DNA of 32,000 bases from Candidatus Iainarchaeum sp. (GTDB taxonomy: Archaea; Iainarchaeota; Iainarchaeia; Iainarchaeales; GCA-2688035): positions 1 to 32,000 of the forward strand of contig JAQTNI010000004.1 in the NCBI GenBank assembly GCA_028713935.1, written 5' to 3'. The notes under the pieces were generated by a model. It was not told the DNA's origin, made no database searches, and saw nothing but the letters and a program-made list of their open reading frames with translations. The translations under genes and the position numbers were made by a program. Shown here piece after piece: positions 10,886 to 31,072 of the stretch (position 1 is the stretch's first letter; the number at the start of each line of letters is the position of its first letter).

Positions 10886-11066
10886 GATTATATTTATTTG
10901 CAATTAAACAATTCTTTAATCAGAGAGGTTTTTAAAGTTAATTCCAAGAGTATGGCCCGCTAATTTTTCCTCGAACCACCCCCAATTAATCGAATTTTTT
11001 CTTAGGACTCGAATTTTCTCGGCTTAAACCTTTGCCTTCGTTTAACTCAGGACAAAGGATTTAATG
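10886..11066 (+). repeat. copy A of a diverged repeat module (ABCE1-promoter-like segment, ATGGCC remnant, conserved 35-mer, hairpin)
   Basis: GATTATATTTATTTGCAATTAAAC (10886-10909) resembles 27559-27580 and 29245-29268. The 35-mer CCAATTAATCGAATTTTTTCTTAGGACTCGAATTT (10982-11016) matches 27728-27762 at 32 of 35 positions. A hairpin follows it (CCTTTG 11029-11034 pairing with CAAAGG 11053-11058). Confidence 0.7.
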
Positions 11067-11125: not shown

Positions 11126-11272
11126 ATGAACTTTGAAAAATTTGAGTTTCCTCTTCCAACACTGGAAGAGATAAAAATAGCAAAAAGGCTTGCAGCAAGC
11201 AATCCAGAAGACTTGGATGATAGAGACATCTGGATTCTGAACGAATTCTGCGGAAGTGATTCCTATGAATAG
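11126..11272 (+). CDS. 48-aa hypothetical protein, overlapping and probably translationally coupled to the LAGLIDADG gene
   Basis: ATG 11126 has GGAGG upstream. The product is MNFEKFEFPLPTLEEIKIAKRLAASNPEDLDDRDIWILNEFCGSDSYE. Its stop (TAG, 11270-11272) overlaps ATG 11265 of the next gene. It is too short for the supplied track. Confidence 0.4.
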   Translation: MNFEKFEFPLPTLEEIKIAKRLAASNPEDLDDRDIWILNEFCGSDSYE

Positions 11273-12179
11273 CGGAAATTCACAGCTCCAGAATTGTTTT
11301 AAACTGGAAAAACAGGGTTCTTTGAGTGAGCCCTGTATGGACCAAGAGATGACACCTGAACTGGCAGAAATTTGTGGGATTCATGCAGGTGATGGTTATT
11401 TGAGAAATGATGGAAAACACAGGGAATTGGACATTAGTGGTGGCTTTGATGAGCAAGGCTATTATGATACCCATGTTGTGCCACTATTTGAAAAATTTTT
11501 TAATATCAAAATAGTGCCAAGGTTTTTTCTTCACAGAGGGACTTATGGTTTTGTAATAAGAGACAGGGCGGTAATTGAGTTTATGCACACTCTGGGCTTT
11601 CCTTATGGAAAAAAAACTTTGACAGTTAGTGCTCCAGAGACAATATTGCAGTCTAAAGATTTGGATATCATTTATCGTTTTGTTCGAGGAATTTTTGATA
11701 CTGATGGATGCCTTTCTTTCAGGAAACGAGAAGGTTCAGGTTATTCAAAGATCTACTTGAAGAGACACACATACCCCAGAATATCATTAAGTGTATGCTC
11801 TAGAAATCTCTGGAGCGGCGTTTGTATTCTCCTGGCCAAAACAGGATTTCAGTTTACCGTCTCATATCAAAGACCAAAGAATAACGAAAGTCAAAAATAT
11901 CTCGTGATGCTAAGAGGTGATGCTAATGTAATAAATTGGATTAATAACATTGGTTTCAAAAATCCAATAAAATATAATCGGTTCCTAATTTGGAAAAAAT
12001 TTGGATTTGTGCCCTCTGGATTAACTCATGAAGACCAAAAAAAAATTCTAAACGGCACAATAGACCCAAATTCATACTATGTTGAAGAACTTCTGGAAAA
12101 TGATGGTCTTGTTCCAATGCTAGTTAAACGAAGGCTTAAGGTCAGCCAAAACTTTGAATCTTTTATTCCTAAAGATTAA
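11265..12179 (+). CDS. double-motif LAGLIDADG homing endonuclease, free-standing
   Basis: ORF 11256..12179 (GTG), first ATG at 11265. It has two LAGLIDADG-type motifs: LAEICGIHAGDGYL and FVRGIFDTDGCLS. It is not embedded in a visible intron or intein host gene. Confidence 0.85.
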   Translation: MNSGNSQLQNCFKLEKQGSLSEPCMDQEMTPELAEICGIHAGDGYLRNDGKHRELDISGGFDEQGYYDTHVVPLFEKFFNIKIVPRFFLHRGTYGFVIRDRAVIEFMHTLGFPYGKKTLTVSAPETILQSKDLDIIYRFVRGIFDTDGCLSFRKREGSGYSKIYLKRHTYPRISLSVCSRNLWSGVCILLAKTGFQFTVSYQRPKNNESQKYLVMLRGDANVINWINNIGFKNPIKYNRFLIWKKFGFVPSGLTHEDQKKILNGTIDPNSYYVEELLENDGLVPMLVKRRLKVSQNFESFIPKD

Positions 12180-12208
12180 AAACACAATTACCCAAAAATT
12201 CATTAGTT

Positions 12209-12284
12209 GGGCCTGTAGCCTAGCCTGGATATGGGCGCTCCGCTTCGGACGGAGAGGTCGGGGGTTCAAATCCTCCCAGGCCCG
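12209..12284 (+). tRNA. tRNA-Arg (anticodon UCG)
   Basis: I folded a 76-nt cloverleaf by hand. The acceptor stem is GGGCCTG/CAGGCCC and the D stem is GCCT/GGGC. The anticodon stem is CTCCG/CGGAG with loop CTTCGGA (anticodon TCG). The T arm is GGGGG-TTCAAAT-CCTCC and the discriminator is G. No CCA is encoded. Confidence 0.9.
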
Positions 12285-12309
12285 CAGTTATTTTTCTTAT
12301 TGAAGCAAT

Positions 12310-24887: not shown

Positions 24888-26423
24888 TCATTCATAAGCC
24901 CTTTTTGTTTCTCCCTTGCTATAGTTTTCCCAGGCTGTTTTTTCAAGCTTTTCACCAAAAGAAGTTGGATACCTGCCGTTTAAGCATGCCATGCACAAAT
25001 CACTGCTTCCTGTTTCCAAGCCTATTCCTTTTACAAGGCCCTCAATTGGCTGGTATGCAAGCGAATCAGCCCCCATGTGTTGCCTGATTTTTTCAAGCTC
25101 GCTTTCCGACAATTCAACCTGAATATTTTCAAGTGCAATGCCTTTTTTTGGTGCAGCAATAAATTCCCCAAATGTTGACATGTCAATTCCATAAAAACAG
25201 GGAAACCTTATGGGTGGGCAGCTTACCCTTACATGGACTTCTTTTGCTTTTCCTGTTTCCTTTATGTATTTTACAATTGCCTTTGTAGTGGTGCCCCTTA
25301 CAATGCTGTCTTCCACTAAAATGACTTTTTTTCCGCTGACAACTTTTTTGTTTATCCCGTATTTTTCCCTTGCTTTTTCAAACCTGTTATCCCCTTCTAT
25401 GAAGGTTCTTCCCACATACCTGTTCCTGATTATGCCTTCCCTGCTTGGCGCGCCAAGTGAAAAGGCAAGCGCGTCTGCAGCCGGTTTTGCAGTGTCAGGC
25501 ACTGGAACAACAATGTGCTCTTCTGAAATTTTTTCTGTTTCAATTTTTGCCAGTTCTTCTCCCAGGGCATAGCGTGCATTGTAAACATTGACTCCCTCTA
25601 TTTCCGAGGCAATGTTTGCAAAATAAACCCATTCAAACATGCAATGCGCTTTTCTCTGGCTTTTGCAGAACCATTTTTTTTCAATGCAGCCATTGTGCAT
25701 TTCAATCAGGGCGCCCGGCTTTACTGTTTCAAATTTTTCAATGCCAATGCTTTCAAGCGAAGCGCTTTCGCTTGCAGCCGCAATAACTCCGTCTTTTTTT
25801 CCTATGACAAGCGGCTTGAACCCAAGATGGTCTCTTGCAACAACTGTTTCGCCTTCGGCATTTACAAAGGCAATGCTGTAAGCCCCGTCAAGTGCAGGGT
25901 GCAAGCTGGAAAAAACATCCACTATTTTTGGCCTGGAATCCCCCCTGCAGCCTCTTGCAAGAAAGTGCATCATCAGTTCAGTGTCATTATCAAGGACAAA
26001 ATGATACTGGTTTTTTTCCAGGTCTTTTTTTAATTCTGAAAAATTTGCAATGTTTCCGTTAAAGCAAAAGCTGAACCATTTCCATTTTCTGCCGTGTTTT
26101 CTTTCAAAGGGCTGTGCAAAAGCCTTTTTGTTGCCGCCAAAGGTTGAATACCTTAAATGCCCAATCCCCTTTGAACCAAAAAATTTTTTCATTGTGCCAT
26201 TAAAAGCAGCAGTGTTCTGGACTTTGAAAACCTCATTTACAAGGCCTGTTTCCCTGAGAGTGCTCAGCAACTTTTTTTTTGAAGTGTTGAAAGTAGTTAT
26301 TCCCGCGCTTAGCTGGCCCCTGTTTTGTTCCTGCAAAAGCATTTTGTACAAATAGTAAGCTGCATTTTCCTTTTCAGGAACGCAGGCAGCCGCAATTCCG
26401 CATTCTTCCTTTGCTTCTCCCAT
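24888..26423 (-). CDS. purF: amidophosphoribosyltransferase (class II glutamine amidotransferase + PRTase)
   Basis: ORF 24888..26441, ATG at 26423 (MGEAKEECGIAA...). It has the Ntn Cys (CGI), the PRPP-binding loop VILVEDSIVRGTT and C-terminal Cys residues. Confidence 0.9.
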   Translation of the reverse strand: MGEAKEECGIAAACVPEKENAAYYLYKMLLQEQNRGQLSAGITTFNTSKKKLLSTLRETGLVNEVFKVQNTAAFNGTMKKFFGSKGIGHLRYSTFGGNKKAFAQPFERKHGRKWKWFSFCFNGNIANFSELKKDLEKNQYHFVLDNDTELMMHFLARGCRGDSRPKIVDVFSSLHPALDGAYSIAFVNAEGETVVARDHLGFKPLVIGKKDGVIAAASESASLESIGIEKFETVKPGALIEMHNGCIEKKWFCKSQRKAHCMFEWVYFANIASEIEGVNVYNARYALGEELAKIETEKISEEHIVVPVPDTAKPAADALAFSLGAPSREGIIRNRYVGRTFIEGDNRFEKAREKYGINKKVVSGKKVILVEDSIVRGTTTKAIVKYIKETGKAKEVHVRVSCPPIRFPCFYGIDMSTFGEFIAAPKKGIALENIQVELSESELEKIRQHMGADSLAYQPIEGLVKGIGLETGSSDLCMACLNGRYPTSFGEKLEKTAWENYSKGETKRAYE

Positions 26424-26463
26424 GTTACAACCCAAAAACAATAATACAATAAGAATATGATTT

Positions 26464-27507
26464 TTAATACTGCAGTTTGAATTTTAAAATAGCAGCAATT
26501 CCGCCAAACCCTTCAAGTTTTTTTCCAGGTTCCTGTTCTGCATTGATTATGTGCACAATGCCCTTGTTTTTTTCAGTTGCATCCATCAGGGAAATAATTT
26601 TTTCCCTGTTTTCAAAAAGCAGTTTGTCAAGCACAAGCAGTTCTTTTGCAGCGCCAAGTTCCACTGCTTTTTTCACCTGTTCAAATCCGTATTCCGCAAA
26701 ACCAGTGTTTTTTCCCATGTTCAAAAGCAATTCTTCCAAAAGCCTTTCTTCAAGGACAATCTGCTTTTGCCTTGAAATTTTGTCCAAAACATCGCTTTTC
26801 AATAATTCTCTCAGGCCAGTAATTCCAGTTGAATTTGTGCTTGCAAACAATGCCCCTGCAAAGCCTTTTTCCTGAAGCCATTTTTTCAAAGCATCTTTTT
26901 CAAAGCCAGGCCCTGCAAAAACAATTGTGCCCGCCTTGATTTCCTTTGCTTTTTGCAGGATTTCTGAAAAATATTTTTTTTGGGAGCCTTCTTCCTGTTC
27001 AAATCTTTTTCCTCTTGAAGAACCCCTTACAAGGCCTCTTGGTTCCAATTCAAATTCCTTCAAGAGGCCAAAGCTTGCGCTTTCTTCATCCAGAACAATT
27101 AACAGTGTGTTTTCGCTTTGCGAAGCCTTTTTTGCCTTTTCAAGCCTTTCAACCTGGTAATTTTTCAATTCCTTTTTTTTGATTGAAACAGGCTTGTTTA
27201 ATTCTATTTCAATTGTCTGGTGAGAGCCAAGCTCTTCAAATTCTGCAGGGGAACATTCAACAAGCACTCCCTGTGCCCTTAATTGCCCTGAAAACCTGTG
27301 AAAATCAAGCTTTTCAATTTCAATTGAAACAAACAGCTTTACTCTTTCGGATTTTTGCTCAACATCCTTTGCCTTTATTCTCCTGTCAGTCTCTCCGCTG
27401 ACCAAGTCTCCTTTTTCAATCACTTTTTCCAAATGCCACAAGTCATCTGCATTTTCTGGAACGACTTTTAGCAGATTAAGCTTCCTGTCAATTGAAAGAA
27501 TTTTCAT
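26464..27507 (-). CDS. pelA: Pelota (aDom34) ribosome rescue factor
   Basis: ORF 26464..27537, ATG at 27507 (MKILSIDRKLNLLKVVPENADDLWHLEKVI). It shows the typical three-domain eRF1-like pelota pattern. Confidence 0.9.
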   Translation of the reverse strand: MKILSIDRKLNLLKVVPENADDLWHLEKVIEKGDLVSGETDRRIKAKDVEQKSERVKLFVSIEIEKLDFHRFSGQLRAQGVLVECSPAEFEELGSHQTIEIELNKPVSIKKKELKNYQVERLEKAKKASQSENTLLIVLDEESASFGLLKEFELEPRGLVRGSSRGKRFEQEEGSQKKYFSEILQKAKEIKAGTIVFAGPGFEKDALKKWLQEKGFAGALFASTNSTGITGLRELLKSDVLDKISRQKQIVLEERLLEELLLNMGKNTGFAEYGFEQVKKAVELGAAKELLVLDKLLFENREKIISLMDATEKNKGIVHIINAEQEPGKKLEGFGGIAAILKFKLQY

Positions 27508-27558
27508 TTTCCCACAAAAAACAAGTGCAGGGAACAATTTAAAACTGTTTTAATGCAC

Positions 27559-27675
27559 GATTATTTTGTTGCAAATTAACGTGATTTGATATGGCTGGTT
27601 TTACAAAAGGAAAGCAGCGAGTAGCTGTTGTTGACAAAGAAAAAGGTATCAATGGTAGGTGTCATATTTGTTTTT
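27559..27675 (+). pseudogene. diverged duplicate of the ABCE1 promoter region and first ~28 codons
   Basis: The ATG 27591 peptide MAGFTKGKQRVAVVDKEKGING matches the true ABCE1 N-terminus MAGFSKGKMRVAVIDKDICING at 16 of 22 positions. Upstream, GATTATTTTGTTGCAAATTAACGTGATTTGAT resembles 29245-29281. Homology fades after about 27675. The listed ORF 27591..27791 continues into unrelated repeat sequence. Confidence 0.7.
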
Positions 27676-27689
27676 TAATTGGGACAACG

Positions 27690-27800
27690 CTACTTTTTTT
27701 GTTATTTTCTTCCAATCTTCTCCGTCTCCAATTAACCAAATTTTTTCTTAGGGCTCGAATTTCATTAGCTTTGACGGCAATTGCCGTTTAGCGAGGAAGA
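27690..27800 (+). repeat. copy B of the repeat module (conserved 35-mer plus palindromic hairpin)
   Basis: CCAATTAACCAAATTTTTTCTTAGGGCTCGAATTT (27728-27762) matches 10982-11016 at 32 of 35 positions. The flanking TTTTCTTCCAATCTTC resembles TTTTCCTCGAACCACC in copy A. The perfect palindrome ACGGCAATTGCCGT (27774-27787) follows. Confidence 0.7.
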
Positions 27801-27852
27801 TTTATAAATACTATTAATTTACTATTGATAGTAATCAATAGTAATTGATAGT
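27801..27852 (+). promoter_or_regulatory. TATA box plus iterated, alternating ATTGATAGT / ATCAATAGT operator-like repeats upstream of the AlbA_2 gene
   Basis: TTTATAAATA lies at 27801-27810. ACTATTGATAGTAATCAATAGTAATTGATAGT (27821-27852) has about 10-bp periodicity and contains the inverted repeat ACTATTGA/TCAATAGT. It ends directly at GTG 27853. Confidence 0.45.
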
Positions 27853-29250
27853 GTGATTTTTTTGGATTTGAAGCAAGTTTTACAAGTCATTGATTCGGGG
27901 GAATCCCAAGAAATTGAGTTTAAGGAATCTTTTCATAGTTCTCAAAAGTTTTCCGAGATAATGTGTGGTTTTGCAAATACTTATGGGGGCATAATCCTAT
28001 TGGGGGTTAATAACAAAAAGCAGGTTATTGGTGTTTTGGACAAAATTGATGAAGTGCAACAAAAAATATCGTGTTCTGCCCAGTCTGTTTCTCCTCCAGT
28101 ACTGCCTTCTATTGAAGTTCATGAAGTGAACGGAAAAAAAATTGTTGCAATAGTTGTCCAGCGGGCTATTGATAGTGCTTTTCATACTTTTCAGGGGGTG
28201 ATTTGGGTAAAAATAGGCAGCACTCTTAAAAAAATAGAAGGAAACCAAATTGTAGATTTTTTGAGAGGCAAACAAATATTGTGTTTTGATGAAACTCCAA
28301 CAAATGCTAAAATTGAAGACTTGGACATAAACAAGCTGAATGCATATCTCAAAGCAAGAAAGCAAGCAGATTATTTCGAATCGCATTCTATTGAGGATTT
28401 TCTTGTGAGTCTAAAGCTTGCTACAAAAAACGGGGATTTAAAAATAAAAAATGCAGCTTTGCTGGTTTTTGCAAAAGACCCCATTTTTTTTAATCCGCAA
28501 ATAGAAATGAAACTAGTCCGTTTTGATGGCAACGAACCAGTAAAAATAATAGCTCATGAACTGGTTCAATCTGGCTTAGTAGAAGGGATAGAAAAGGCAC
28601 TTTCATTTGTTAAGTCAAATATTTCCAAAAGCATTCAAGTAAAGCTTGATGCAAAAAGAGAGGAGCAATTCCAATACCCAATAGATGTTATACGAGAAGC
28701 AATAGTAAATGCGGTTGCACACAGGGATTATTTCAGCAAAGATGCCATACAAATTTATATTTTTAATGATCGCCTTGAAATAACTAATCCGGGTTCTTTG
28801 CCACTGGGCCTGCCAAGAGAATTGTTTGGAACCCTCTCTGTTCAACGAAATCCTCTGACATATAGAATACTTAGAGACTATGGCTATGTTGAAGGCCTTG
28901 GCTCTGGGGTGCCGAGAATGATAAACAGCATGAGAAAACAGGGATTAGCTGATCCGGACTTTGGGATATATGAACATTTTTTTAGAGCAATATTAAAAAG
29001 CAGGCAAAGTTCATCAAAGCCAACCAAGAGTCATGCTGACCTTAATAAAAGGCAAATAAAAGCAATAGAATTCTTAGGGAAAAACAAGTCAATAAAAACA
29101 AAAACATACATGAAAATAAACAATGTTTCATTTGGCACTGCAAGGCTTGACATTAACGAAATGATAAAATTAAGCTATCTTAAAAAAATAGGTTCTTACA
29201 AGGGAGCTTACTATATACTAAAAACTCAAGAACCAAGTAAAGAGGATTAA
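27853..29250 (+). CDS. AlbA_2 (Schlafen-like) + HATPase_c_4-like + C-terminal wHTH protein (COG2865-type putative regulator, often mislabelled RecG-like)
   Basis: 465 aa with a GTG start. The N-terminus reads ESQEIEFKESF...GFANTYGGIILLGV (AlbA_2). The middle reads REAIVNAVAHRDYFSKDAIQIYIFNDRLEITNPGSLP...RNPLTYRILRDYGYVEGLGSGVPRM. The C-terminal HTH-like region is LNKRQIKAIEFL. Confidence 0.8.
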   Translation: MIFLDLKQVLQVIDSGESQEIEFKESFHSSQKFSEIMCGFANTYGGIILLGVNNKKQVIGVLDKIDEVQQKISCSAQSVSPPVLPSIEVHEVNGKKIVAIVVQRAIDSAFHTFQGVIWVKIGSTLKKIEGNQIVDFLRGKQILCFDETPTNAKIEDLDINKLNAYLKARKQADYFESHSIEDFLVSLKLATKNGDLKIKNAALLVFAKDPIFFNPQIEMKLVRFDGNEPVKIIAHELVQSGLVEGIEKALSFVKSNISKSIQVKLDAKREEQFQYPIDVIREAIVNAVAHRDYFSKDAIQIYIFNDRLEITNPGSLPLGLPRELFGTLSVQRNPLTYRILRDYGYVEGLGSGVPRMINSMRKQGLADPDFGIYEHFFRAILKSRQSSSKPTKSHADLNKRQIKAIEFLGKNKSIKTKTYMKINNVSFGTARLDINEMIKLSYLKKIGSYKGAYYILKTQEPSKED

Positions 29251-29281
29251 TTTTTATTTTGCCAATTTGATGTGATTTCTA

Positions 29282-31072
29282 ATGGCAGGGTTTAGCAAAG
29301 GGAAGATGCGTGTCGCAGTTATAGATAAAGATATTTGCATTAATGGCAACGGATGCAATTTTTATTGCGCCTCAGTTTGTCCCATTAATCGAAGTGGAAA
29401 AGAGTGTATTGTTTTGGGAGAAGACAACAAGCCTATTATTAATGAAGATTTGTGTACGGGTTGCGGAATTTGCCCTAAAAAGTGCCCTGTTTTCTGTATA
29501 ACAGTCATCAATCTTGCCTCTGAAAAGCATTCAACTCCTGTTCACCAATATGGCGTGAATGCTTTCAGGCTTTTCAATTTGCCAAATCCAAAGCAGAATT
29601 CTGTTGTCGGCTTGCTTGGCAGGAATGGAATTGGAAAAACAACTGCCTTGAGAGTGCTTGCCGGGCAATTAGTGCCGAATTTTTCTGTTTTTGAAAAGCC
29701 TGCTGATTACAAAAAAGCAATTGAATCTTTTAAGGGAAAAGAATTGCAGGGTTTTTTTGAAAGGCTTTCAAAAAAGCAAATCCGGCTTTCTTACAAGCCG
29801 CAAAAGGTTGATGAGCTTGCAGAAATTTTCAAGGGCAGGGTAGTAAGGGAACTGCTTGAAAAAGCAGATGAAAAAAAGCAATTATCAAAAATTGCAGCAG
29901 AATTGGGAATTGATTCCATTCTTGGCAGTGAAATTTCAAAGGTTTCAGGGGGAGAACTGCAAAGAATTGCAATTGCAGCCTGTATGCTGAAAAAAGCTGA
30001 TATTTATTTTTTTGATGAGCCTTCTTCTTACCTTGATGTTAGCCAGCGCTTAAAGGTCGCGGAATTGATAAGGGGCTTGCTTGATGAAAGCACCAGCATT
30101 ATTGTTGTGGAGCATGACCTTGCGCTTTTGGACTATTTGAGTGATTATATTCACATTTTTTATGGCCAAAAATCTGTTTATGGCATAGTGAGCGGCATTA
30201 AAAGCGTGCGCAATGGCATAAACGAGTTTCTTGATGGATTTCTCCCTGAAGAAAACACAAGATTCAGGGAAAAAGAGCTTTCTTTTGGAGTAAAACCCCC
30301 TGTACTTTCAGAAAAGCGCAGGATACTTGTCGAATACCCTGTTTTGCAAAAAAAACTCGGAAATTTTTCAATGCAGACAAGCGCAGGAAGCTTTATGGAA
30401 GGAGAAGTAGTCGGGGTTTTGGGGCCGAATGCAATTGGAAAAACAACTTTTGTAAAATGCCTTGCGGGAGAAATCCTGCCTGACAATGCAAAATTAAATT
30501 TCAAATTAAAAATTGCCTACAAGCCGCAATACCTTAAGCCTCCGGAAGAAGTGCTGGTGCGGCAATTGTTTTCTGCAAAAGAGATTAATCAGCAATTGTT
30601 TGAAACAGAGATTGACAGAAAGCTTAATATTAAAACACTGTTTGAACACAAGCTTTCCGAGCTGAGCGGAGGGGAACTGCAAAAAGTCAGCATTGCCTAT
30701 AACCTTTGCCTTGGCTCTGACCTGATTCTTTTGGATGAGCCCTCCGCTTTCATTGACATTGAGGACAGGTTAAGGGTTGCCGACTGCATAAGAAGCGTTG
30801 TTTCAAGCACAAAAAAAATTGCCTTGGTTGTTGACCATGACATTTTGTTCCAGGATTACATTTCAGACAGGTTAATTGTTTTTTCAGGCCAACCTGCAAA
30901 ACAGGGAATTGCTTCAAAGCCAATGCCGATGCACGAAGGCATGAACCTCTTTTTGAAAGAAATGAATATTTCTTTCAGGAGAGACCCCCAGACAGGCAGG
31001 CCAAGGGCAAACAAAATTGATTCCCAAAAAGACAAAGAGCAAAAAAAGAAAGGAGAATACTATTACCAATAA
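29282..31072 (+). CDS. abce1: ABCE1 / RNase L inhibitor-type ribosome recycling ATPase
   Basis: 596 aa. The N-terminal 4Fe-4S ferredoxin-like Cys clusters are CASVCP and CTGCGICPKKCP. It has two ABC cassettes: GRNGIGKTT and GPNAIGKTT; signatures VSGGELQR and LSGGELQK; Walker B motifs YFFDEPSSYLD and ILLDEPSAFID. Confidence 0.95.
   Translation: MAGFSKGKMRVAVIDKDICINGNGCNFYCASVCPINRSGKECIVLGEDNKPIINEDLCTGCGICPKKCPVFCITVINLASEKHSTPVHQYGVNAFRLFNLPNPKQNSVVGLLGRNGIGKTTALRVLAGQLVPNFSVFEKPADYKKAIESFKGKELQGFFERLSKKQIRLSYKPQKVDELAEIFKGRVVRELLEKADEKKQLSKIAAELGIDSILGSEISKVSGGELQRIAIAACMLKKADIYFFDEPSSYLDVSQRLKVAELIRGLLDESTSIIVVEHDLALLDYLSDYIHIFYGQKSVYGIVSGIKSVRNGINEFLDGFLPEENTRFREKELSFGVKPPVLSEKRRILVEYPVLQKKLGNFSMQTSAGSFMEGEVVGVLGPNAIGKTTFVKCLAGEILPDNAKLNFKLKIAYKPQYLKPPEEVLVRQLFSAKEINQQLFETEIDRKLNIKTLFEHKLSELSGGELQKVSIAYNLCLGSDLILLDEPSAFIDIEDRLRVADCIRSVVSSTKKIALVVDHDILFQDYISDRLIVFSGQPAKQGIASKPMPMHEGMNLFLKEMNISFRRDPQTGRPRANKIDSQKDKEQKKKGEYYYQ

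Follow-up and report, generated by a model that had tools for sequence, protein, structure and literature searches.

A Schlafen cassette inserted in the 5′ end of archaeal ABCE1 and the duplicated gene start that brackets it

The subject here is an insertion in a 32,000 nucleotide (nt) stretch of DNA, referred to below as the window, from the archaeon Candidatus Iainarchaeum sp. (assembly GCA_028713935.1, contig JAQTNI010000004.1, positions 1 to 32,000). Within it the divergently oriented genes for pelota (aPelota/Dom34) and ABCE1 (Rli1) are held apart by 1.6-1.7 kb that carries a single gene, of the prokaryotic Schlafen type, and on either side of this insert is a copy of the ABCE1 start, one truncated and the other fused to the rest of the gene. 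The preferred reading, to which a probability of roughly 60% is assigned, is that a foreign unit of ~1.6-1.7 kb was integrated into the ABCE1 5′ end by homology, without an integrase of its own, in an ancestor of this Iainarchaeota lineage. The window has a G+C (GC) content of 39% and comes from the Iainarchaeota (Diapherotrites, DPANN); the nearest of 220 pelota homologues are annotated as mRNA surveillance protein pelota of Ca. Iainarchaeum/Diapherotrites.

An insertion at a duplicated ABCE1 start

That the ABCE1 start is present twice had been put forward in an initial annotation of the window, which counted 16 of 22 matching positions between the two peptides, and both the count and, on formal alignment, the similarity hold. 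When 29240-29350 is compared with the whole window by blastn, 27561-27640 pairs with 29254-29331 over 80 nt at 72.5% identity (E 4e-7), the sole significant secondary match of the ABCE1 5′ region within the window, and the Smith-Waterman score of the copies is 49, as against a mean of 18.6 and a maximum of 28 in 500 shuffles. By eye, homology extends to ~27665/29358 with a 3-nt indel, giving ~105 nt inclusive of the promoter-like part. The left copy (DR-L) has the promoter-like box GATTATTTTG ~30 nt before its ATG, and that of the right copy (DR-R), TTTTTATTTTG, overlaps the stop-codon region of the cassette, promoter calls throughout being predictions from TATA-like boxes ~25-32 nt before leaderless ATGs. 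Of the 23 codons compared, 9 have synonymous differences only and 7 have non-synonymous ones, the other 7 being the same in both copies; in terms of sites there are 12 synonymous differences on 14.5 synonymous sites, i.e. saturation, and 10 non-synonymous differences on 54.5.

The extent of the insert, with its single ORF (open reading frame) of 465 amino acids at 27853-29250, is as that annotation described it, and the same applies to the 83 nt between the pelota ATG (27507; the listed pelota ORF begins at a TTG further upstream) and the ATG of the left copy (27591). A remnant spacer of this length is within the range of those of relatives. A pelota profile scan, with one genome per species, yielded 80 loci; pelota and ABCE1 adjoin in most Iainarchaeota, either divergently or co-directionally, and the spacer is <140 nt in 25 of the 34 divergent pelota-ABCE1 loci listed. 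The empty site that had been anticipated in related genomes is found in both of the closest relatives, L004 and L006 (pelota 80% and 78% identical in amino acids, respectively), in which the two genes are divergent and ~47-75 nt apart. With the left copy stopping at about codon 25 and L004 and L006 empty, the insertion is in the 5′ coding end of a conserved gene (the window ABCE1 is 77-85% identical in amino acids to its orthologues in L004, L005 and L006) and is missing from relatives. In a relative at 68% identity (L003/L007; GCA_016931555.1, 1664-5783) pelota is not beside ABCE1, and an MmeI-like type IIG restriction-modification (R-M) gene and a 102-amino-acid ORF are upstream instead. Two independent Logan assemblies (SRR22315509, SRR22315506) have the arrangement of the window at 100% identity, which excludes a one-off misassembly.

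Judged by composition and distribution, the cassette is foreign in origin. It is the 1400-nt stretch of lowest GC in the window (34.6% versus 39.4 +/- 1.8, rank 1 of 153), and its gene has a GC content of 35.4%, with 39-42% in neighbouring genes, and 28.9% at third codon positions, with 35-43% in ten other genes. Its homologues are 70-77% identical across Nanoarchaeota, Woesearchaeota, Altiarchaeia, Micrarchaeota and Diapherotrites; pelota identity, by contrast, is ≤56% past the five closest relatives within the Iainarchaeota.

At the nucleotide level, similarity to other cassettes covers 27798-29222, beginning at the TATA box (left start 27798-27805) and ceasing shortly ahead of the stop codon, and the right junction is ≤3 nt from the cassette stop codon. 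Flanks of the cassette are imprecise elsewhere: in L103, L104 and L106 it is directly followed by a gene starting MFDKEQAKEE/MNNKEKAKEE, of which L107 and L120 retain the first 8-9 codons (L107:2350-2376, cut by the end of an insertion sequence (IS), GGCTCTGTCCTGAATCTC; L120:1910-1935). The junction segment between truncated copy and conserved cassette, here termed segment X, has no homologue in 150 related loci. It holds a perfect palindrome, ACGGCAATTGCCGT, at 27774-27787, and its sole match is a 35-nt motif (27728-27762; AATTTTTTCTTAGGRCTCGAATTT...) that is 91% identical to window positions 10982-11016. Both window copies of this repeat are intergenic, each then followed by a hairpin; a repeated motif with a regulatory or terminator-like role would be one explanation, a piece of a small repeat another. 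At 11256-12285 a 307-amino-acid ORF with a weak LAGLIDADG_3 match stands right before tRNA-Arg TCG (12209-12285), the window's only tRNA gene; a 366-amino-acid ORF after it has no Pfam match, and Rfam finds the single tRNA and nothing else in the window.

No integrase had been seen in the initial annotation, and neither integrase nor transposase is present in the insert or among the 15 of 63 window ORFs of ≥100 amino acids that were scanned against Pfam (five at or near the locus, the other ten taken from the larger ORFs in the rest of the window); nor are there inverted repeats at the insert boundaries. A DNA transposon or IS was considered and set aside on the lack of transposase and boundary inverted repeats, the variation of the ends between loci and the divergence of the repeats with allele-like differences. 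The 66-codon chimeric ORF with a hydrophobic stretch, opened by the truncated start, exists as had been reported. It has no Pfam match and no homologue beyond its ABCE1-like first 25 codons, and is probably a by-product, possibly expressed from the displaced promoter. On the pelota side a TATA-like box, TTTAAA (~27538-27546, minus strand), would be the pelota promoter, and a GAAACAGTTTAAAAC-like motif there is common to the L004 and L006 spacers. Coordinates are collected in Table 1.

Table 1. Features at the pelota-ABCE1 locus of the window, and small inserts at the corresponding site in other loci
Feature	Position	Strand	Basis or remark
purF	24888-26441	-	neighbour beyond pelota
pelota (aPelota/Dom34), left neighbour, intact	26464-27507	-	Pfam eRF1_1/eRF1_2/eRF1_3
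Pelota-proximal part of original 83-nt divergent spacer	27508-27560		sequence reading
Left copy (DR-L): promoter-like box, ATG 27591, ~25 ABCE1-like codons, then truncated	27561-27665	+	blastn and alignment
66-codon chimeric ORF opened by truncated ABCE1 start	27591-27791	+	ORF list
Junction segment X, between truncated copy and conserved cassette	27666-27797		sequence reading
Putative cassette promoter/operator	27798-27861	+	homology to other cassettes, motif count
Prokaryotic Schlafen gene, intact	27862-29250	+	Pfam, structure search, alignment; listed ORF starts at GTG 27853 (465 amino acids)
Right copy (DR-R): promoter-like box, ATG 29282, first ~25 codons of working ABCE1	29254-29358	+	blastn and alignment
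ABCE1 (Rli1), intact	29282-31072	+	Pfam ABC_tran x2, Fer4_21; N-terminal 4Fe-4S domain, two ABC ATPase domains
Small inserts in first codons of ABCE1	L032:6736-6946, L040:6741-6835, L041:6354-6429	minus strand of loci	sequence comparison

The Schlafen cassette in the window and at other loci

The description of the cassette gene as AlbA_2/Schlafen-type is borne out by a Pfam match to SLFN_AlbA_2 (PF04326, E 1.8e-21, residues 17-128), beyond which are a match to HATPase_c_4 (PF13749, E 4.2e-20, residues 298-381) and a weak one to a DeoR-type helix-turn-helix (HTH) at 399-455. The likely start is TTG 27862 (MDLKQ...), preferred to the GTG at 27853 because MDLKQ matches the MDKxQ start of homologues. 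ESQEIEFK corresponds to the catalytic motif Ex4(E/D)xK, with E17, E22 and K24, and 40 aligned sequences all have E22, K24 and D66, with E17 in at least 90% of them. By sequence, the only match in the PDB is the uncharacterised 3lmm, which, at full length, is also the top Foldseek match of an AlphaFold (AF2) model of moderate confidence (pLDDT 66.6). The predicted fold further resembles SLFN14 (E 4e-5), SLFN12 (3e-4) and the N-domain of SLFN13 (8e-4), weakly the CA domains of histidine kinases, and the MarR/PagR/AspA winged helices (probability 1.0). PADLOC matched the N-terminal part of its pAgo model (E 4.8e-24), in keeping with published Schlafen-GHKL-Argonaute fusions.

By its domain content the gene is a further member of the known prokaryotic Schlafen (pSlfn) HisKinase-HTH class, since Schlafen-HisKinase-HTH is listed in PMC13056530, where the Schlafen motif is given as Ex4(E/D)xK and HisKinase-HTH fusions account for 19.2% of pSlfns. 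An E-D-K triad (E17/D22/K24 in CbCash) cleaves tRNA, and an association of Schlafen-ATPase-DNA-binding clusters with R-M, BREX and type I CRISPR is described (PMC13462974). The product of the window gene, when triggered, probably cuts tRNA or other RNA through its Ex4ExK site. Its neighbours are pelota, ABCE1 and purF, with no defence gene among them, which does not bar membership because 30% of pSlfn genes are without defence neighbours (PMC13056530).

The predicted control region has a TATA box, TTTATAAA, at 27801-27808, and between this and the start codon are five ACTATYRAT half-sites forming ACTAT-NN-ATAGT palindromes (27810-27852). Five such half-sites occur in 45 nt here and two elsewhere in the 32 kb, and the same cluster is upstream of the gene in L084, L086, L087, L088, L097, L099, L109 and L120. 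Repression by the product of its own promoter, via the C-terminal winged HTH acting on these operators, is probable from this layout.

The cassette has about a thousand homologues, and the notion that it would occur elsewhere holds for many other loci, in R-M/defence islands and between housekeeping genes across DPANN phyla, and fails for viral contigs, in which no relative was found. In L084 it is beside GmrSD and an MmeI-like enzyme, in L086 within a type I R-M operon and in L087 between a fibrillarin operon and a GHMP kinase. With 66 metagenome loci fetched, 1.2 kb upstream was compared with 1.2 kb downstream for 33 testable cassettes, at a repeat cut-off of E ≤ 1e-5. Direct flanking repeats are present in 9 of the 33 cassette loci and in 1 of 151 control genes (pelota, ABCE1 and purF; Fisher 6e-7). 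They are 22-227 nt in length and 72-100% identical, and in at least three of the nine loci the repeated sequence is that of a host gene at the site. The cassette of L087 has on each side a copy of the 5′ part of the GHMP (pantoate-type) kinase gene that lies downstream of it (159 nt, 82%, E 6e-44), and in L088 the repeat stops after codon 4 of a downstream MinD/ParA-like gene. The window, L087 and L088 are the clean cases, with a truncated local host copy upstream and an intact downstream gene start after the cassette.

Small elements at the same site and routes of arrival

The ABCE1 start is also duplicated, over 18-40 nt, around non-coding inserts of 57-171 nt in L032, L040 and L041. Their left-end motif is CAACAGTT[TG]CG[GT]CTGTTGGGT[AG]CG, with a hairpin CAACAG/CTGTTG; Rfam finds nothing in the three, and on RNA folding L040 has a modest z-score of -2.4 and L041 none. 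Most informative is L032, with a 211-nt insertion in the ABCE1 5′ end for which L034 (Ca. Iainarchaeum andersonii) is the empty site, ~100 nt being identical on each side. The truncated, pelota-side copy of L032 is the L034 allele at 40 of 40 positions, and the copy fused to the working ABCE1 has 5 differences, all synonymous. As far as sequence comparison goes, this pair is direct evidence for a foreign origin of the copy joined to the working gene. A further copy of the small element is at another target, L034:13-36, and a second small insert of L040 (L040:6886-6958), with a related hairpin and the TTGGGTGCGCG motif, is in the pelota promoter, flanked by the 28-nt duplicate ATAGAACTTTTAATAAGGGTTTTAAATC, so that the family is not strictly ABCE1-specific. 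The window insert was considered as a member of it and rejected, as the left-end motif CAACAGTTKCGKCTGTTGGGTRCG does not occur in the window when up to 3 mismatches are allowed.

In these three loci the ORF from the truncated start ends at or overlaps the real ABCE1 ATG (TGA|ATG, ATGA, TAGTTATG; L032:6736-6760, L040:6741-6750, L041:6350-6360), which looks like selected translational coupling; if coupling holds, ABCE1 synthesis would depend on termination and reinitiation. Other occupants of the divergent spacer are a PIN gene with a partner and an SRPBCC protein (L005:5453-6989), a ParE-like toxin with a partner (L033:6276-6856), MazE and PIN (L044:6325-6906), a small basic protein (L039), a small membrane protein (L042) and a YggS-type gene (L024). 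No ABCE1 5′ remnant above shuffle controls was found in these larger spacers of L005, L024, L033, L039, L042 and L044. Just upstream of a co-directional ABCE1, L071 has an exact 21-nt repeat (1112-1132 versus ~1200-1220).

For the window, the incoming unit would have consisted of segment X, the self-contained Schlafen cassette, complete with TATA box and operator, and the promoter and first ~25 codons of an ABCE1 gene. Integration would have relied on homology of this ABCE1 5′ segment to the 5′ end of the ABCE1 gene in the chromosome, whether by a Campbell-type single crossover or by att-like recombination catalysed in trans, with no element-encoded integrase or transposase involved. The resulting order would be pelota, displaced promoter and truncated ABCE1 start (with the 66-codon ORF), X, cassette, and then replacement promoter and start fused to the rest of ABCE1, such that the essential gene would still be expressed, as a leaderless mRNA from the adjoining copy. 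The initial annotation had already likened the locus to an integration by which an essential gene had its 5′ end displaced or replaced, and the empty sites, the significance of the copies and the L032/L034 parallel fit this.

The alternative with most in its favor, though unlikely, is a long target duplication made in place: the cassette would have entered a break with widely staggered ends, or the junction of a tandem duplication that arose spontaneously, in the ABCE1 5′ region, and the copies, at first identical, would then have diverged. IS1634 elements are known for long, variable target duplications, and the variation in repeat length around the same cassette in different targets (22-227 nt) is of that kind; the repeats of L040 are nearly identical, and that of L088, with a 156-nt indel and a pN/pS of ~0.3, has the look of decay. 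The nature of the differences is what tells against it. Neutral decay of a truncated copy would be expected to give ~63-65% non-synonymous differences, and pooling of the window, L087 (5 synonymous versus 1 non-synonymous), L032 and L041 gives 24 synonymous versus 11 non-synonymous (P 6e-5 to 2e-4 against duplication and neutral decay). Such copies look, from their codons, like two alleles that diverged while both were in working genes, and it is from this that one copy is taken to have arrived with the insert. In the L032/L034 pair, moreover, all five differences are in the copy on the working gene, with 0-1 differences in 250 nt of flanks, and there are no transposase, boundary terminal inverted repeats or conserved ends of the sort that a duplicating element might have.

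A quite improbable proposal, compatible with the insertion mechanism, is that the location was chosen by function, RNA-cutting toxins being kept between pelota and ABCE1 because the ribosome-rescue pair shares their regulation or buffers them. RelE-type toxins target tRNA or mRNA on the ribosome. The same is true of Schlafens (PMC13056530, PMC13462974), and toxin or defence genes are in 4 of the 34 divergent pelota-ABCE1 spacers listed (the window, L005, L033 and L044), three further spacers having small elements in the ABCE1 start. However, the same cassette is mostly in R-M/defence loci or beside unrelated housekeeping genes, and the L024 spacer houses a housekeeping gene; divergent spacers may simply be safe landing sites. 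Scarcely credible is the absence of any insertion, whether with an ancestral arrangement, with the upstream copy as a functional leader or upstream ORF (uORF) regulating ABCE1, or with an assembly artefact joining strain variants. The stop/start overlaps in L032, L040 and L041, suggestive of translational coupling there, are the point in favor of a uORF, but in the window 1.5 kb separates the end of the 66-codon ORF from ABCE1. Also opposed are the empty sites of the closest relatives, the recurrence of one identical structure in three assemblies, and the 72.5% identity of the copies, which is far under strain-level similarity.

Integration by homology, the preferred reading, has its own difficulties. 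No donor arrangement was found in which the cassette immediately precedes an ABCE1 gene without duplication. The window copies have no identical run of >8 nt in common, with no att core or crossover point visible, and from the lack of a longer identical core the event is taken to be old; indeed at 72.5% identity homologous recombination could not act today, so the event must be old and its mechanism is extrapolated from younger cases. In a 60-nt comparison to L006 the right copy is 80% and the left 73% identical, which does not favor the left as native, and similarity to L004, L005 and L006 gives no native-copy call, these relatives being too distant. Within ABCE1, codons 1-80 (29282-29520) are closer to L005 and the remainder to L006/L004 (informative sites 32:22 versus 57:116, Fisher 7.5e-4), an incongruence consistent with recombination among these lineages and a hint of it, with a breakpoint chosen post hoc. 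The small elements share no sequence with the window insert and the analogy may not carry over. As to the recurrent flanking repeats, those of L107 are IS copies, those of L099 may be hsdS paralogues, and that of L088 is compatible with in-place duplication and decay.

A broader formulation, tentative and with the odds well against it, is that integrase-less DNA of one class moves among DPANN archaea with the help of a short copy, carried along, of the promoter and first codons of a conserved host gene. It would recombine into that gene in a new host, whose own start would stay behind as a remnant while the incoming one works in its place. The class would include the Schlafen cassette and the 57-171-nt non-coding elements, the ABCE1 5′ end would be preferred in Iainarchaeota, and ABCE1 would be kept expressed either by the supplied promoter (the window) or by a uORF stop overlapping its ATG (L032, L040 and L041). 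The uORF case might tie synthesis of ABCE1 to ribosome recycling, its own activity, and the small elements with stop/start-coupled uORFs make such a link of recycling to ABCE1 expression testable.

Comparison with known systems and significance

Within a defence family that has lately been characterised, the gene itself is nothing unusual. In common with known pSlfn HisKinase-HTH proteins (PMC13056530; PMC13462974; SLFN-pAgo preprint 10.64898/2026.05.29.728809) its product has a SLFN/AlbA_2 core with Ex4ExK, a GHKL-type ATPase-like domain and a C-terminal HTH, and homologues of the cassette are likewise in type I and type IIG R-M loci and beside GmrSD. The window copy differs in being alone between translation genes and in belonging to a DPANN-wide subgroup that is unusually conserved (70-77% across phyla). 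Its route of arrival is less ordinary. A reduced-genome DPANN archaeon can take a defence gene inside an essential translation gene with the latter kept, and the same signature, a duplicated start of the neighbouring gene with allele-like copies and no recombinase seen, is around the same cassette in other genomes and at other targets. If general, this would be a simple homology-hitchhiking route for exchange of defence genes among DPANN lineages, and truncated gene starts upstream of an insert would serve as a marker in annotation.

Cis-mobilisable and miniature integrative elements have att sites without an integrase. These, and elements of IS1634 type, are alike in being non-autonomous inserts between direct repeats of the target with repeat length varying; the window insert differs from them in that no conserved ends, inverted repeats or partner integrase or transposase were identified, and its copies are allele-like rather than fresh duplications.

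SXT/R391 elements integrate in the 5′ end of prfC. The closest structural parallel in this respect is with genomic islands and prophages in the 5′ end of dusA, which have DusA-associated integrases (PMC4482086). As in the window, these islands are inserted among the first codons of a conserved housekeeping gene and have imperfect direct repeats (attL/attR) on either side. As is probable for the window, the element also gives the gene a new 5′ end with which it still works, the former one persisting as a remnant at the opposite boundary. An element-derived working 5′ end, the dusA-type feature, is seen in the comparison of L032 with L034, and in the window the synonymous bias of the differences supports two allelic origins for the copies. 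The window insert differs in lacking an integrase, in its size (a single gene in 1.6 kb, against tens of kb for the islands) and in its DPANN host, and its repeats are long (~105 nt including promoter) with no recognisable core; the cassette signature is also at other targets (L087, L088) rather than at one att site. It is thus structurally like the dusA-island family but, with no element-encoded tyrosine integrase, not a member. Integration that replaces the 5′ end of a gene was already known; what would be new here is its occurrence with no integrase and a single gene, recurrently across targets in DPANN archaea.

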